A stretch of 64,000 nucleotides of DNA from Escherichia phage T5. Positions 1,795 to 59,710 of the stretch are shown piece after piece. Within the stretch, counting starts at the first letter, position 1; every line of letters begins with the position of its first letter. A model generated the notes under the pieces. The model was not told the origin of the DNA. It was given only the letters and a program-made list of their open reading frames with translations, and made no database searches. The DNA is taken from the sequence record NC_005859.1. One strand, given 5' to 3'. The position numbers and the translations under genes were made by a program.

Positions 1795-4581
1795 GTGTTT
1801 TCTATCCTCCAAGGTCACGCCGGATTTTCTCGTGATTTAGCAACAGGTATTTGGCGAGAAATCAAAGCGGAAGATTATACCTTTGCCAAGCGATTCTCGA
1901 AAGAGCATCCAGAAGGTAAACCAGCTTCTATGCCCTTCAAATTTGATGTAATAGAAGAGCACGACCCACAAAGCCTTGCCGAAATGTTACCCCTCATGAG
2001 ACGTTTAACGTCTGACCCTCATATCGTTGCGGTGCGAGGTCGATGTCTCGCACCTAAAAATAATGTGCGACGTAAGAAAGGTAACTTTAATGTATCTAAT
2101 CCTAGTAATATTATTGCTATGGACGTGGATGGTATCCTAGATACCGGTGGGTATGACAAATTTAATCTTGTTGGTATGGCCCGCCACATTATTAAGATGT
2201 TGAATAGTATTAGTGAGGATATGTTTCCTCTTGATGCAGGGTTTATTGCTCATGCATCGTCTTCGGCTGGGCTAAAACCAGGTATCCGAATGCACTTAAT
2301 GCTAGAATCTAACGTCAAGGTAACTCAGGGTCAGCTAAAGTTCTTATTTACATCTATCAACGATAGTAGTAAGCAAAAATTTGGTTTTGATATTGCCGAC
2401 CTAGCTTATTATTCATCTGTCCAGCTCCACTATTTTGCCGACCCCTTATTTAGCGATGGTATTGTTGATCCGTTTAAAGCGGAGAGTAAGCCACGTCTGG
2501 TGTATGTTAAAGGTTCGAAAGTAAATTTGCCCAATAATCTGGTTGACTATGAAACAACTAGAGGGGAGTTTAAGGAAGAGTTTTATTCTTTACTTGATCA
2601 AATTAAAGGCAAAAAGATTGCTTCTGATAAAGTAGAAGAAACCATCAGCGAGTTAGAAGAGGCTGATGATGGAGTGTATTTGCGTATTATCCCCAAACTA
2701 TACCATAGAGCATTAGAGGATGGTGTTGATTTTGCATGGCTAGAACGTGAGATTAAACCAGCTTTATCTGAATATATTGCAACTAAAGATAACAGTCGTA
2801 ATATTCAAGATTACTTTAATAACGGTCGTAAGCAGGCTCTCAAAGCGTTTGTTAATAATTCTAAACGTGAGATTCCATTAAATCTGAAAGGTGTTCCACT
2901 TAAGAAATTAGAAGTGGATTCTCCACCAGAAGTTCCATACCTGAAGATTAACATTGTGCCCCCAAAAGGCCATATAACATTTGTTAAGGCAAGTCTTGGT
3001 ACTGGTAAAACTACGGCAGTAACTAAATGGCTGGACGCAGGTGTTCTTCCAGGCAACTTTTTAGCAGTTACAAATACTAGAGCACTGGTATCTTCAAATG
3101 CCAAGAAATTTAGTGCAGGACAATACGATAAGTCTGTAGATATGCTCAACTTTAAACGTGGAGCTATCGATCGTATGTCCACAACTATTCACTCTTTGCA
3201 TAAGTTCAAAAGTTTTATTGGGCAAATAGACACCATTTTTATTGATGAATGTGACGCTGTAATGAATGACCTATTATTCGCCCCTGTTGTTAAACAACGT
3301 CGCGAGTGTATTCAAGTTCTACGTGACATCCTTATGACAGCTAAGACTGTAATCTTATCCGATGGTGATATTAGTGCTGAGACGATTGAAGCATATGGTT
3401 CTCTAATTGATTTTGATAAACCAGTAGCATTTTATAATCATCACCGTAAAATGCTGTCAAAAGCACACGCTTATGAGTTTCCTGATGAATCCAGTATTTG
3501 GGTTGCACTTCAGACTTCTCTAGAGATGGGTGAGAAATCTATTCTAGTATCTGATTGTGGCCCGGATGAGCTGAATGAGAAGGGTATGGCACTGCGTCGT
3601 AATACGGGTGCGTTAGTTAAGGAAATCCATTCAAACTCCACCTCAGATGTGGATATTCGACGTATTCTGGATTATACAACTAATGAGCTAATTGATCAAC
3701 AAATTGATTGCTTATTATGTAGTCCATCCGTAACGAGTGGCGTTGACTTTAACTATTTCGATAATGTGTTTGTTATTACTAGAACCAGTAATCAAGCGCC
3801 AAACATGCGTTTCCAAGCAATCAGGCGCGACCGTGGTGCCCAGAACATCTATTATTTTATTGATAAATCTACGAGTGGATTCTCTGCAGGTTCTGAGCAA
3901 TATAATATTGATGAAGGTTGGCTGGAGTTAGCACAGCAATTATACGCACGTCGTAGAGAGCTGGAATCTAGAAACTATACTAGTACCTTACGTTATTATT
4001 TGCTTGATCAGGGTGCAACTATTGATATTTTCAGCGAAAGCTGGGGAACTATTGAAGGTGCTGGTAAAGAATATACAGAAGAGCGAATCAAAGCTATTCT
4101 GCATTCAACTCCAGATTATTGTGCCCCACGTCATGCAGATGCATATGAAGCTAAACTACTTCTTGTTCGCTATTATCATCTTGAGTCTATTAAAGATGTA
4201 ACAGTTGAGCATGTCGAACAATATATCAAAGATAAACCGAATGATCGAGCTGCATTCTTCCATAAGATGCACGAGATGTTCTGGGAAGATATTAAGAAGT
4301 GTTCAAATGTGACCATTAAACCATTCATAGAGGCTCTGAAAGGTAAGAAGAAAGACTTCTTCCTTAAAACAGGTCAGAGTGCCAACCCAAAATATGCTAG
4401 AATGTATCTTGGTATGATGGGTATTGGTAAGGATATGAACACTGAAAATATTGTAGACTGGTACAGAACCTATTGTAAAATCGAGTGTATGCCAATTCCT
4501 TTCAAATTCATGACAGAGGAAGAGAGGGCTATGGCAGAAGAAGTAATGTCCGAACTTGGAGCAACTAATGAAGATGCATAA
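1795..4581 (+). CDS. large P-loop ATPase, putative replication/origin-binding helicase-like protein
   Basis: 928-aa ORF, GTG start with RBS aggag; Walker A LGTGKTT; Walker-B-like FIDECD. Confidence 0.7.
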   Translation: MFSILQGHAGFSRDLATGIWREIKAEDYTFAKRFSKEHPEGKPASMPFKFDVIEEHDPQSLAEMLPLMRRLTSDPHIVAVRGRCLAPKNNVRRKKGNFNVSNPSNIIAMDVDGILDTGGYDKFNLVGMARHIIKMLNSISEDMFPLDAGFIAHASSSAGLKPGIRMHLMLESNVKVTQGQLKFLFTSINDSSKQKFGFDIADLAYYSSVQLHYFADPLFSDGIVDPFKAESKPRLVYVKGSKVNLPNNLVDYETTRGEFKEEFYSLLDQIKGKKIASDKVEETISELEEADDGVYLRIIPKLYHRALEDGVDFAWLEREIKPALSEYIATKDNSRNIQDYFNNGRKQALKAFVNNSKREIPLNLKGVPLKKLEVDSPPEVPYLKINIVPPKGHITFVKASLGTGKTTAVTKWLDAGVLPGNFLAVTNTRALVSSNAKKFSAGQYDKSVDMLNFKRGAIDRMSTTIHSLHKFKSFIGQIDTIFIDECDAVMNDLLFAPVVKQRRECIQVLRDILMTAKTVILSDGDISAETIEAYGSLIDFDKPVAFYNHHRKMLSKAHAYEFPDESSIWVALQTSLEMGEKSILVSDCGPDELNEKGMALRRNTGALVKEIHSNSTSDVDIRRILDYTTNELIDQQIDCLLCSPSVTSGVDFNYFDNVFVITRTSNQAPNMRFQAIRRDRGAQNIYYFIDKSTSGFSAGSEQYNIDEGWLELAQQLYARRRELESRNYTSTLRYYLLDQGATIDIFSESWGTIEGAGKEYTEERIKAILHSTPDYCAPRHADAYEAKLLLVRYYHLESIKDVTVEHVEQYIKDKPNDRAAFFHKMHEMFWEDIKKCSNVTIKPFIEALKGKKKDFFLKTGQSANPKYARMYLGMMGIGKDMNTENIVDWYRTYCKIECMPIPFKFMTEEERAMAEEVMSELGATNEDA

Positions 4582-5086
4582 ACCAATGCCTCCTATGGCA
4601 TTTATCCTAGAAAAGCTTAGGTATGACGAAAGTACCGGGGACTTAATTTGGTTATCTGGCCCAAGGAAGGGAAAGGTGGCGGGCTCCAAAATGAAAACTG
4701 GAAGACAGTTAGAGTTTACGATAAATGGGGAGCGGACAGCTTACTTAGCCCATAGAATAATCTGGTTTATAAAGACAGGCGAAGATCCTGGGGATAAAAC
4801 TATCGACCACAAAGACGGTGATAGTTTAAACAACTTGTGGGATAATTTACGTAAGGCTACCTATTCCGAAAATGGAAAGAATAAGAAGTGTTCTACTAAT
4901 TCTACCGGATTCACTGGAGTTGTAAAACGAGGTAATAGATATATGGCCTACGCTTACTGCGAGGGAAAGCAGCATATTTTTGGTAGACGAGATACCCCGG
5001 AAGAAGCCCATCAGCTATACCTTAGGGGAGTTAAAGAACTGTTTGGTGAATTTAATCCCTCGGAGAGATATGACAGTGAAGAATAA
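4556..5086 (+). CDS. HNH homing endonuclease with AP2-like DNA-binding domain
   Basis: 176 aa; AHRIIW...IDHKDGDSLNN..NLR.AT..EN HNH motif; C-terminal TGFTGV..RGNRYMAY AP2-like segment; start overlaps preceding gene. Confidence 0.75.
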   Translation: MEQLMKMHKPMPPMAFILEKLRYDESTGDLIWLSGPRKGKVAGSKMKTGRQLEFTINGERTAYLAHRIIWFIKTGEDPGDKTIDHKDGDSLNNLWDNLRKATYSENGKNKKCSTNSTGFTGVVKRGNRYMAYAYCEGKQHIFGRRDTPEEAHQLYLRGVKELFGEFNPSERYDSEE

Positions 5087-5303
5087 AAAATGGGAAACAA
5101 GGAAGTTTCCAGTAAAAGAACGTAAAGTTCCTGTTTATGATACTTCGGAGAAGCTATGTAGGGTGGTACCGCACAGATTAGCTGGCATCCCTAACATATC
5201 CGAATGGTTACTTAAACAACGGAGGACTAGCGTATCCCTTCGCATAGGGTTTGAGTTAGATAAAGTATATGCTGAACTTTCTTCTTTGCTCAAAGAATCA
5301 TAA
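5070..5303 (+). CDS. hypothetical small protein
   Basis: ATG overlapping HNH stop, RBS ggagaga; longer upstream start at 4980 would overlap HNH coding. Confidence 0.3.
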   Translation: MTVKNKKWETRKFPVKERKVPVYDTSEKLCRVVPHRLAGIPNISEWLLKQRRTSVSLRIGFELDKVYAELSSLLKES

Positions 5304-5312
5304 AAAATTTAT

Positions 5313-5341
5313 TTGCTTTCAGGAAAATTTTTCTGTATAAT
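5313..5341 (+). promoter_or_regulatory. T5 early promoter, sequence matches PN25
   Basis: -35 TTGCTT 5313-5318, 17-bp spacer, -10 TATAAT 5336-5341, AT-rich upstream and ATAAATTTGAGAGAGGAG downstream; identical to my memory of PN25. Confidence 0.85.
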
Positions 5342-5371
5342 AGATTCATAAATTTGAGAGAGGAGTTAAAT

Positions 5372-6076
5372 ATGGCTGGTTCTCGCAGAAAGAAACATAT
5401 CCATGAAATCCCGGATGAAGTCTTTAAAAAAGTTATAGAGCATCTGGAAAACGGTGGTACTAAGAAAGCAGCATGTGAAATGCTCGGCGTATCATCCAAT
5501 CCAACTATGGAAAGGATGATTGAAGAGTGGCAAGACCGCCAGATTCAAGTTGCCGAAATGAAGAAAAAGAAACGTGGTACACTCATTGAAGGTATTGAGT
5601 TGGCCAACGTTATTGAACAGTATCTATCTGGCGATTCTTTCGAAGAGATTGCCGATCGTAATTACCGCTCTGTAGCAATGGTTAAATCTGTTCTGGAACG
5701 CTATGGTGCTCTGCTTCGTTTGAACGATATTGTAGATCCATTGAATCCACCAATTATTCCTGATGATGCTGTAGCAGAAGAATTTGAGGTAGGTGAGCTT
5801 GTTTGGGTTCCTGGATACCAGTGTATTGGTGAAATCAAAAAAGCAATGGATAACCCTGTTGGTTGTTACCGTGTTTGGCTTCTATCAGAAGGCAAACAAC
5901 AGAACGTTCATTATATGAATTATGAGCTGGCCTCTGTTAAACACCTGGAAAAGTTAGGGGTTGATGTAAAATCTCTGGGGTATAAATGGACTCGGGAAGA
6001 AGTCATTACGTTGATTAACGAAGCTGTTAAGGCCGCCTTGAAACTTGATAAAGAAAAAGGAAAACGCCGTGAGTAG
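5372..6076 (+). CDS. hypothetical protein with probable N-terminal helix-turn-helix
   Basis: ATG at 5372 sits 6 nt after RBS gagaggag and downstream of the PN25 start site; the track start 5354 lies at the transcription start. Confidence 0.7.
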   Translation: MAGSRRKKHIHEIPDEVFKKVIEHLENGGTKKAACEMLGVSSNPTMERMIEEWQDRQIQVAEMKKKKRGTLIEGIELANVIEQYLSGDSFEEIADRNYRSVAMVKSVLERYGALLRLNDIVDPLNPPIIPDDAVAEEFEVGELVWVPGYQCIGEIKKAMDNPVGCYRVWLLSEGKQQNVHYMNYELASVKHLEKLGVDVKSLGYKWTREEVITLINEAVKAALKLDKEKGKRRE

Positions 6077-10358: not shown

Positions 10359-11867
10359 ATGCTCCTTCCCCTTTTTGCATTTAGAAGGCACGAAAGCGTG
10401 CAAAGGAGAATGACCTTGTTTAACGTGCAAGCTGTAGTGTTGAAGATGCTTCTAGCTTCCGAACAGAAGCAAATAGCATTGGAAACATTCTCAAAACTGC
10501 ATAAAGATCATTTTAATGACGCTTTCTCCTCAATTTACCAAGCCGTCCAGAATTATTATAAAAAATATAACACAATGCCGTCCATTGACGCACTGATGCT
10601 TGAGGCTAATAGGAACGCCCGCCTTTCTCAAGCTCTAGTCGTTTTAGCTAACACTCAAATTCCAGAAGTTAGCATGGAACAGGCACTTGAAGTCCTAGAG
10701 GCCGAGTATACACAGGATTTATTCCTGAAGCTTCTAGAAACAGACGTGCTTCAAGATTTAACAATGCTGGATCAGGGAGAAATTCTTAACCGAGTTGCCT
10801 CCCTTCACTTAAAATTAGAAGAGAAAGTAACGAATACTGGAAAAGTATTCAACGCAGATAACATGCGTATTTTCCAGAGAGAAGAAGATACCAAACTGAA
10901 CTTAATCGCTCTTGGTATTTGTAATGAGTTCGACGCTCAAATTGGTTTAGCTCGCACAGAAACGTTACTGCTTGGTGGTTGGCGTGGTACTGGTAAATCC
11001 ATTATCTGTTCAAACATACAGGTTGGAGATATTGCTCCATACTTCTCAATTGAGATGAAAGAACATGAAGTATTTAGACGTAATCTAGCCATGTTAGCTG
11101 GTGTATCAGCACTAGCAATGCGAAATAATACTCTAGAAGGTGCAGCTCTGTTGAGATTAGCCAGAACTAGAGCTAGAATGTTTAACGGTGGTGAAGAGCT
11201 TTTCGATAACTTCGTTAAACAATACACAATGGCTAAGATGAGTGATTTCTACGATATGGAAAGTAAGCTAATAGAAGGATATGAGCTACATACTCCTATG
11301 ATTATTGTTTATGATCCTGAGCTGTCTATTACAACAGTTGACGTAGAATTAAATAAATTAGTTGCTAGATATGGGGATAAAGTTACAGTAGCTTTACTTG
11401 ACTATATTAACCAAACCCGACTTCCAGATTCTAAAACCATTGATATGTATGACTGGAAAGAACAGATGGTTGTTAGCTCGTCTTTCAAATCCATCTGCCA
11501 GAAACATAACGTGGCTGGTGTAGCTCCTTACCAGATTGATCAAGATGGTAGAACACGTATGTCAAAAGGGATTCTTGATTCCGCAGACATGGCTGCTAAT
11601 CTTAATGCTGCAAAAGCTGATAATGGTCAAGGTGCTATTATGTTTGACTTCGTTAAGACCCGTTCTTCTGATAGCGTGAAGTTTATGCCTAAAATGAACT
11701 GGGAAACCCTGCGGATGGATAACACTACCAACCTAGCAATGGAAGATATATCTCAAATGGAAGCTGAGTTCGTTATCCCTATTGAGAAGGATAAGCCGGC
11801 TCAATCTAAACGTGCTAAGAAAGACAAAGCTGAAAATTCAACAGGTGAACAGGCCAGCGATATATGA
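10359..11867 (+). CDS. DnaB-like replicative helicase
   Basis: Walker A GGWRGTGKS; RecA-like C-terminal half; exact start uncertain (10359 has ggagg RBS, alternatives 10410/10416). Confidence 0.75.
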   Translation: MLLPLFAFRRHESVQRRMTLFNVQAVVLKMLLASEQKQIALETFSKLHKDHFNDAFSSIYQAVQNYYKKYNTMPSIDALMLEANRNARLSQALVVLANTQIPEVSMEQALEVLEAEYTQDLFLKLLETDVLQDLTMLDQGEILNRVASLHLKLEEKVTNTGKVFNADNMRIFQREEDTKLNLIALGICNEFDAQIGLARTETLLLGGWRGTGKSIICSNIQVGDIAPYFSIEMKEHEVFRRNLAMLAGVSALAMRNNTLEGAALLRLARTRARMFNGGEELFDNFVKQYTMAKMSDFYDMESKLIEGYELHTPMIIVYDPELSITTVDVELNKLVARYGDKVTVALLDYINQTRLPDSKTIDMYDWKEQMVVSSSFKSICQKHNVAGVAPYQIDQDGRTRMSKGILDSADMAANLNAAKADNGQGAIMFDFVKTRSSDSVKFMPKMNWETLRMDNTTNLAMEDISQMEAEFVIPIEKDKPAQSKRAKKDKAENSTGEQASDI

Positions 11868-12397
11868 TAACACAGGAAAGGCTAAAAGAGTTATTTGATT
11901 ACTCCCCAGGAACTGGGGAGTTTACTAGAAAAGTATCTAGAGGTAATCAGAAAGCTGGTAGTATAGTAACCAGAAAAGACTCTAACGGTTATATAATTAT
12001 TGGTATAGATGGCAAGGATTACAAAGCCCATCGGATGGCTTTTCTATTTATGGAAAATACATTACCGGAAAAAGTAGACCATGTAAATAGAATACCCTTT
12101 GATAATAGGTGGTGTAATCTAAGAGATGCCACAGCCCAGGAAAATAGTAGAAATAAAACCGCATGTAGTAAGTCTGGATACTTGGGAGTTGCTTGGGATA
12201 TCGAAAAACAAAGATGGAGAGTTCAGGTAAGAGACTCTAATAGCACTCTTAAAAATGGTGGCAGATTTAAGTATGAGGAGCTAGAGCTAGCTGTAAATTC
12301 AGCAAATATACTAAGGACTAAGTTACATGGAGAACGTGCTGTTATAGAAATTTTTGATACATCTAATTATCCTTCACTGGAGGAGTTAAATTCATGA
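11864..12397 (+). CDS. HNH homing endonuclease with AP2-like domain
   Basis: 177 aa; AHRMAF...VDHVNRIPFDNRWCNLR..T..EN HNH motif; YLGVAWD...RWRVQV AP2-like; ATGA overlaps with both neighbours. Confidence 0.75.
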   Translation: MITQERLKELFDYSPGTGEFTRKVSRGNQKAGSIVTRKDSNGYIIIGIDGKDYKAHRMAFLFMENTLPEKVDHVNRIPFDNRWCNLRDATAQENSRNKTACSKSGYLGVAWDIEKQRWRVQVRDSNSTLKNGGRFKYEELELAVNSANILRTKLHGERAVIEIFDTSNYPSLEELNS

Positions 12398-59191: not shown

Positions 59192-59710
59192 TTAATTGAC
59201 AATTCCAAATTCAGCTTTTTTAGTTTCTACCCATAATAATAACTCTTGTAAATCATAACCTGATTTACTAACACTTTTGTTACTAGTAGGATCTTTAACT
59301 ATAGCGCGCAAATAGTTTCTTCCGTTATTATCAACTCTAGAACCATTATAATAGATATGCTTAGGCAACTTATTAGCACGCTTATAATCTTTCTTGTTAT
59401 TCATATTCTGCTTATGGTCTACTAAGCGAAGATTATTAATGTTATTATTAGCACGGTTACGATCATTATGATCGATTGTTAGATTGCTATCAATCTCACC
59501 ATTAAATAATACCCATATTATTCTATGCACTGCGTATTGTTCGCCTGCTAACTTTACTCGATAGTAACCTGTGTTACTATAATGCCCTGCAATATCACCC
59601 ACCTTACTATTACCTTTCTGTACTTTCCATCTTAGAAATGATGGGGATGTTTCATCATAATAAAAGTTATCATTAGCAAGCGAATAATCTATATCTTTAA
59701 ATAGACCCAT
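59192..59710 (-). CDS. HNH homing endonuclease with AP2-like domain
   Basis: 172 aa; AVHRIIW...IDHNDRNRANNNINNLR...HKQN HNH motif; third member of the family at 4556 and 11864. Confidence 0.7.
   Translation of the reverse strand: MGLFKDIDYSLANDNFYYDETSPSFLRWKVQKGNSKVGDIAGHYSNTGYYRVKLAGEQYAVHRIIWVLFNGEIDSNLTIDHNDRNRANNNINNLRLVDHKQNMNNKKDYKRANKLPKHIYYNGSRVDNNGRNYLRAIVKDPTSNKSVSKSGYDLQELLLWVETKKAEFGIVN

Follow-up and report, generated by a model that had tools for sequence, protein, structure and literature searches.

T5p107, a probable homing endonuclease gene of the HNH(HNN)-AP2 type inserted between obp and T5p108 in bacteriophage T5

The obp-PN25 locus and the T5p107 product

Among the early genes of Escherichia phage T5 is T5p107, which is annotated as "HNH endonuclease" or "putative endonuclease" in the T5 records and which we analyzed within a 64,000-nucleotide stretch of sequence record NC_005859.1 (hereafter the window; positions are counted from its first letter). 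The gene lies on the + strand immediately downstream of obp/D2 (1795-4581, +), a native gene whose product resembles replication origin-binding proteins and SF2 helicases (Pfam Herpes_ori_bp, E 1.3e-7), and immediately upstream of T5p108 (5070-5303, +), a 77-aa "hypothetical protein" gene that overlaps T5p107 by 17 nt. The early promoter PN25 (about 5293-5366, +; "promoter P-N 25" in AY692264) is annotated directly after T5p108, in agreement with the original prediction of an endonuclease gene just upstream of this promoter, and drives the next early gene (5372-6076, +). The two phage T5 records AY692264 and AY587007 are 99.9% identical to the window over positions 4300-5600.

In its longest form, the T5p107 open reading frame (ORF) extends from a TTG at 4556 to the stop at 5086, and these were the limits originally predicted. 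The ORF is present and annotated, but its start is more likely the ATG at 4568, the TTG being the mechanically longest choice. The ATG is favored because it is preceded, at a distance of 6 nt, by a GGAG Shine-Dalgarno (SD) sequence (4558-4561, +), because it is the annotated start in AY587007 and in the BASEL phage records, and because the resulting N-terminus MKMHKP lines up with MANHKP, the beginning of a 43%-identical homologue; the rival ATG at 4586, annotated in AY692264, has no visible SD. T5p107 thus defined occupies 4568-5086 (+) and encodes 172 aa. The predicted overlap with the large ATPase gene upstream, namely obp/D2, does exist, but with the favored start at ATG 4568 it amounts to only 14 nt rather than 26: the stop codon of obp lies at 4579-4581, inside T5p107, and the last 14 nt of obp fall within the endonuclease gene.

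The T5p107 protein matched the Pfam family HNH_3 (PF13392) with an E value of 1.3e-12, scoring 47.6 bits where the cut-off is 24.8, residues 59-103 (4742-4876, +) covering profile positions 1-45 of 46, and it matched phrog_99 ("HNH endonuclease") over its full length at E 3e-52. Searches of the NCBIfam profiles returned no match for any of the four proteins searched, T5p108 included. When aligned to I-HmuI of Bacillus phage SPO1 (PDB 1u3e), residues D80, H81, N93, and N102 of T5p107 fell opposite D74, H75, N87, and N96, and H81, N93, and N105 were invariant in a family alignment of 19 relatives. In the 1u3e paper, the aligned I-HmuI residues are reportedly a D-H general base and a metal-binding Asn. 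A PDB sequence search with T5p107 gave I-HmuI as the sole near-significant match; this match was only marginal (E 0.038), and the link to I-HmuI was strengthened by structural comparison instead. An AlphaFold model built on the alignment of the 19 relatives reached a pLDDT of 89.8, and 1u3e was its top PDB match in Foldseek (probability 1.0, with a modest E value of 4e-3); the two superposed over the N-terminal two-thirds with an rmsd of 3.1 Å over 86 columns at 27% identity.

The C-terminal part of the model consists of three strands (residues 118-121, 124-131, and 134-141) and then a long helix (144-162), and residues ~113-162 (4904-5053, +) matched the plant AP2/ERF domains 7et5, 7wq5, and 1gcc with a Foldseek probability of 1.0 and rmsd values of 1.2-2.2 Å over 50-62 columns, which suggests an AP2-fold DNA-binding domain. 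The Pfam AP2 profile itself matched four of nine aligned T5p107 relatives (best E 1.4e-7), and a sub-threshold match (E 0.032) was found in the protein of a related gene at 11864 of the window. We therefore accept HNH(HNN)+AP2 as the predicted architecture of T5p107, with the AP2 part taken from the modeled structure and from relatives. In T5 and related phages, existing annotations already label the protein as an HNH endonuclease or a putative homing endonuclease.

Anatomy and distribution of the insertion

The junctions of T5p107 were defined by comparing four genomes that carry the gene with five that do not, plus EPS7, and by anchoring the comparison on conserved flanks; a MAFFT alignment of T5 with DT57C misplaced the gap and was set aside in favor of these anchors. 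Relative to the empty site, T5 contains a 502-bp insertion at 4568-5069, so that the span across the site measures 1301 nt in carriers and ~799 nt in non-carriers. Because the tetranucleotide ATGA is repeated at both ends (4568-4571 and 5070-5073), 4572-5073 is an equally valid delimitation. The empty site reads GAG CTA GGT GCT AGA A, ATGA, CAGTGAAGAATAA AAAATGGG, in which the ATG is the start of T5p108 and the TAA the stop of obp; in DT57C or BF23, this empty obp/T5p108 junction includes GAGCTAGGTGCTAGAAATGACAGTGAAGAATAAAAAATGGG. The left junction in T5 reads GAA CTT GGA GCA ACT A, ATGA, AGATGCATAAACC, followed by the gene, and the right junction reads TCGGAGAGAT, ATGA, CAGTGAAGAATAA AAAATGGG.

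At both of its ends the insert takes over translation signals or supplies new ones. T5p107 occupies the former position of the T5p108 start and SD, the equivalent of 4558-4561 in empty-site phages being the SD GGTG. The first 14 nt of the insert give obp a new stop, a TAA that lies out of frame within the His-Lys codons of the endonuclease gene, and the obp product consequently ends in NEDA* in place of NDSEE*. At the other end, the 3' end of the insert carries a GGAG (5062-5065, +) that can serve as the SD of T5p108. The host-derived tail that follows, ATGACAGTGAAGAATAA (5070-5086, +), forms both the end of the endonuclease ORF and the beginning of T5p108, and corresponds in empty-site phages to the last obp codons (DSEE) and stop. 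In the family alignment the relatives end at GEFxxx, and T5p107 has a C-terminal extension, ERYDSEE, because its frame runs on through the former last four codons and stop of obp. The insertion is thus tidy and non-polar, both neighbors staying expressed because the insert supplies the stop of obp and the SD of T5p108. T5p107 itself has no apparent promoter of its own and is predicted to be translated from the early obp transcript.

T5p107 was found in 22 of 465 T5-like records that match the flanks (~15 distinct phages), and ~95% of these records lack it. In carriers, the gene always lies between obp and T5p108 and is 96-100% identical, whereas all other relatives detected by a translated search of the phage collection were <60% identical. 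The site is empty in DT57C, HildyBeyeler, ESCO40, JLBYU43, phC11, EPS7, and BF23, in which T5p108 follows obp directly with a 17-nt overlap. Flank distances and fixed differences were then evaluated in four carrier and five non-carrier genomes. On 1,150 nt of the obp flank, the carriers did not form a clade: IrisVonRoten, a carrier, was nearest to the non-carriers ESCO40 and HildyBeyeler, and T5 was tied between DT57C and IrisVonRoten. In five of the six carrier pairs, the gene was less diverged than the flank (1.2-3.9% versus 5.0-7.7%), and in the sixth the two were about equal (4.0% versus 4.3%). All four copies examined were intact ORFs with only 1-8 amino-acid changes. Given that most pairs show lower divergence in the gene than in the flanks, that the carriers are no clade, and that the copies are intact, these data favor horizontal movement of T5p107 in recent time, within a small sample of nine genomes.

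The same comparison, which reached from 1,200 nt left of the insert to 200 nt right of it, revealed that the 3' end of obp contains a recoded tract (4544-4566, +). This tract contains all eight fixed differences between carriers and non-carriers, at 4544, 4551, 4554, 4557, 4560, 4563, 4565, and 4566, that is, 2-24 nt to the left of the ATG. The differences were confined to the last 28 columns up to the end of ATGA, with none in the other ~1170 nt on the left and none in the 200 nt on the right, and across the compared flanks the background difference between the groups equaled that within them. Five consecutive codons each carry one synonymous third-position change (TCA>TCC, GAG>GAA, CTA>CTT, GGT>GGA, and GCT>GCA), which accounts for five of the eight differences. 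At ≥95% identity, the tract occurred among Tequintavirus only in the 22 carrier records; outside that genus, Klebsiella phage vB_Kpn_3 has the identical sequence (23 of 23 nt) natively at the end of its obp, where it precedes a T5p108 of the Sugarlandvirus type, and GAACTTGGAG is common to the tract, Sugarland, and Roth37 (Sugarlandvirus).

The tract is probably a donor flank that was co-converted with the gene and that also altered the target of the endonuclease. With 8 of 23 positions changed directly beside the insertion, it would blunt self-cleavage, and the target and cut site are likely to lie within ~30 nt of ATGA in the empty allele. De novo "immunity" mutations were rejected as the primary explanation of the tract, the same 23 nt being native in vB_Kpn_3 and GAACTTGGAG in Sugarlandvirus. 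On the right, the first ~50 nt after the insertion (5070-5120) are near-invariant among the T5-like phages, with 0.6 differences per 50 nt compared with 4.5-6.8 per 50 nt further downstream; by analogy, such a dual-coding, near-invariant flank fits enzymes that target highly conserved sequence.

The vB_Kpn_3 record (MZ079855, a "Sugarlandvirus" partial genome; L012 1-1816) is itself unusual. Its obp is T5-like, has the 3' end seen in carriers, and is broken into several ORFs; the sequence switches to a Sugarland-type T5p108 exactly at the ATGA site of the T5 endonuclease gene. Either this is a natural recombinant at a nuclease-gene boundary, or the assembly is chimeric or of low quality.

Homing and competing explanations

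We consider it highly probable that T5p107 belongs to the free-standing homing endonuclease genes of the HNH(HNN)-AP2 type and, as a selfish mobile element, has inserted itself between obp/D2 and T5p108. During co-infection with a relative lacking the gene, the enzyme, acting as a monomer on a single site, would recognize the empty obp/T5p108 junction through its AP2 and N-terminal beta domains. Judging from its family, it would probably nick one strand, as I-HmuI and the F-Tfl enzymes of T5 do, and replication or processing would convert the nick to a break. This break would then be repaired by recombination with the carrier genome, which would copy the gene, together with a short flank, into the empty genome. 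The carrier would be protected from its own enzyme because its target is split by the insert and altered at eight of the 23 positions of 4544-4566.

Several points weigh against this interpretation. The Pfam AP2 profile (PF00847) gave no match to T5p107 even at E≤10, and the AP2 call thus comes from the predicted structure and from relatives. The recoded tract could be no more than a donor allele that hitch-hiked along and be silent on the recognition site, and the flanks of the nine genomes compared could have been scrambled simply by recombination among T5-like phages. In addition, our literature search found no paper that characterizes T5p107, its cleavage, or its inheritance.

One alternative is that T5p107 is a decaying or inactive relic, whose ORF is intact and persists because it is harmless, and which no longer cuts or moves. 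Its nuclease activity is a prediction from sequence, the 7-residue extension absent from relatives consists partly of former obp codons, and other phages provide documented cases of decay in such genes (PMC2248197); an HNH gene that is probably frameshifted also occurs at the same locus in DaisyDussoix. Against this stand the conserved catalytic residues, the integrity of all four copies, and the pattern of gene and flank divergence among non-clade carriers, which points to recent lateral spread. On balance, we regard a relic as improbable.

A second alternative is that T5p107 has been domesticated for a phage function, such as the introduction of the single-strand nicks in the T5 genome or the degradation of host or competitor DNA. 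It is encoded in the early replication operon, downstream of obp, HNH_3 enzymes of this kind usually act as nickases, and T5 DNA has site-specific nicks (PMC10644984). However, some 95% of T5-like records do without the gene, and no sign of a partner or regulatory tie was seen at the locus. BF23 lacks both T5p107 and the related gene at 11864, yet the same kind of nicks is reported for it (PMC10644984). T5p107 was for this reason rejected as the maker of the T5 genome nicks, and a search of the literature on sciA and the T5 nickase found nothing useful. Domestication is accordingly very unlikely in our judgment.

The original prediction had suggested that the 78-codon ORF after the endonuclease gene may be an insertion remnant, in which case the mobile unit would span 4556-5303. 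The ORF does abut the endonuclease gene, with which it shares 17 nt, and no Pfam or NCBIfam family was found for T5p108. Nevertheless, T5p108 is at the same place, with the same 17-nt overlap with obp, in the insert-free phages DT57C, HildyBeyeler, ESCO40, BF23, and EPS7, and the insertion boundary at 5069/5070 lies upstream of it. It has a family of its own (phrog_5291, E 9e-43), is recognizable at 46% identity in Klebsiella phages of another genus, Sugarlandvirus, and shows dN/dS values of 0.05-0.2, which indicate purifying selection. A structural model of T5p108, made from a 10-sequence alignment, was unreliable (pLDDT 62, pTM 0.29). T5p108 is a native, conserved phage gene and not debris, and the remnant explanation, already refuted by the empty-site genomes, can practically be discarded.

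Other T5-like phages carry different HNH_3 genes directly after T5p108 and just upstream of PN25, namely JLBYU43 (L006 2002-2574), DaisyDussoix (L004 2504-3084), and phC11 (L007 1998-2456), at places that correspond to about position 5303 of the window; because of these, we view the obp-PN25 interval as an insertion hot spot. The JLBYU43 and DaisyDussoix genes are of the NUMOD4+HNH_3 type, and the latter, split into 120 and 70 aa compared with 190 aa in JLBYU43, is probably a frameshifted, decaying copy. As for PN25, we read its elements from the sequence as -35 TTGCTT (5313-5318) and -10 TATAAT (5336-5341) with a 17-nt spacer; a simple consensus promoter scan did not flag it, because the -35 agrees with the consensus at only 3 of 6 positions. 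The sole difference between the window and both T5 GenBank records over 4300-5600 is in a T-run at 5366, where the window is one T shorter (GAGGAGTTAAATATG compared with GAGGAGTTTAAATATG in both records); the missing T belongs to the stretch that separates SD from ATG in the PN25-driven gene.

Related genes, comparable systems and significance

T5p107 had been assigned to the same family as two further genes of the window, at 11864 and 59192, and this assignment was borne out. Pairwise BLASTP comparisons among the three proteins were significant (E 2e-8, 6e-7, and 2e-7; 29-36% identity over 61-71 aa), all three matched phrog_99, and the fold matches of T5p107 agreed with the HNH(HNN)+AP2 type. 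A family profile made from 16 homologues, all from outside the window, was searched against all six-frame ORFs of the window and found exactly these three (4568, 11864, and 59192, at 2e-50, 2e-39, and 1e-25). For the 59192 protein, the profile match was limited to the N-terminal and HNH part, and no AP2 region was detected with it. The description of the three as paralogous is loose: with a global identity of only 22-25%, they look like distant family members, most simply explained as independent arrivals rather than as recent duplicates within T5. The notion of repeated homing agrees with their distribution, all three genes being patchy among T5-like records with clean empty sites elsewhere; 60 of 443 records had the 11864 gene, and 22 of 484 had the 59192 gene. 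The latter (59192-59710, - strand) lies in the T5 terminal repeat and hence has two genomic copies, found at two places in AY692264.

The 11864 gene (11864-12397; also L014 765-768) sits between a dnaB-like helicase gene and the primase gene and shares the insertion anatomy of T5p107: an ATGA repeat, a supplied SD, and one-sided flank mismatches. ATGA occurs at both of its ends (11864-11867 and 12394-12397), and empty-site phages have a single ATGA as stop/start overlap; the insert brings GGAGGAG directly ahead of the primase start. Compared with ESCO40, the primase gene next to the insert had 13 mismatches in its first 68 nt and none in the next 232. A homologue in phage Gostya9 is annotated as "HNH nicking homing endonuclease F-TflVIII".

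The HNH(HNN)-AP2 class is known in phages, having been described in the Xanthomonas phages Xp10, OP1, and Xop411 (PMC2248197), and "IPA-HNH" relatives are mentioned in PMC10448857, with reference to Magnani et al. 2004. Like T5p107, members of the class have an N-terminal region followed by an HNN-type HNH_3 motif (AHRxxW ... DH ... NLR ... EN boxes) and then by a C-terminal AP2 domain, and they are free-standing, scattered in several copies per phage genome, and variable between close relatives. T5p107 departs from the class profile in that its AP2 domain is below Pfam significance, the fold being seen only in the predicted structure. T5p107 and its insertion junction are not analyzed in these works.

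Of individual enzymes, I-HmuI is the best structural match and shares the D-H...N active site and a similar N-terminal beta domain; unlike the free-standing, AP2-bearing T5p107, it is encoded in a group I intron and ends in a helix-turn-helix. F-TflI, F-TflII, F-TflIV, and the annotated F-TflVIII/P-TflX belong to the same phage and to the same broad class of free-standing HNH homing or nicking enzymes. Only F-TflI, II, and IV of T5 are reported as characterized (Akulenko et al. 2004, as cited in PMC3326045 and PMC10644984), and their genes lie in the tRNA region, in contrast to that of T5p107 between obp and T5p108. The mobE and seg genes of phage T4 resemble T5p107 in lying between or at the ends of essential genes of DNA metabolism and in being present or absent among relatives, and they spread with co-conversion of flanking markers (PMC2330249 and PMC3326045). 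The seg genes, however, encode GIY-YIG enzymes and mobE an HNH enzyme without AP2, whereas T5p107 would combine HNH with an AP2 fold; and the co-conversion tracts and cut sites of mobE and seg have been measured, whereas those proposed for T5p107 come from sequence comparison.

T5-like genomes have been described as differing from one another mainly through their homing endonuclease genes (PMC10644984 and PMC12639943), and the variability of such genes among these phages has already been published (PMC10644984, PMC12639943, and PMC3326045). The T5p107 insertion is real but ordinary, as well as already annotated, and has little consequence beyond the tidying of annotation. What is added here is a description of the insertion at the level of base pairs, including the start codon and the translation signals borrowed and supplied, a linked 23-nt flank that predicts where the target lies, and the correction of T5p108 to a native gene. 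These junction details simplify the design of cleavage assays and of a T5 x BF23 cross. For users of the PN25 region, the DNA just upstream of the promoter is a hot spot for insertions of endonuclease genes.

Among the distinct relatives of T5p107, the closest, at 43% identity, is found in OR846838, an unverified record of "Listeria phage LM 4-11-1" (L013 2296-2998). It begins with ATGGCAAATCATAAACC, in which the same CAT-AAA-CC (His-Lys-Pro) as in T5p107 contains a TAA, out of frame, at which the upstream ORF terminates with a 14-nt overlap. The neighboring ORFs appear T5-like by eye and, if they are, the Listeria host label is doubtful. A broader and distinctly more tentative idea, which we put forward as possible rather than probable, is that the family is a self-contained, seamless cassette, with a built-in TAA via CAT AAA CC (present in T5p107 and in its 43%-identical relative, which lies at another site), a 3' GGAG, and ATGA stop/start junctions (the repeat flanking both the 4568 and the 11864 genes), and that the T5 copy has a cross-genus origin; a jump into Tequintavirus is proposed because the 23-nt flank is identical to that of a Klebsiella T5-like phage. 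If true and general, this would provide a rule for how such elements enter tightly packed operons without polar damage.

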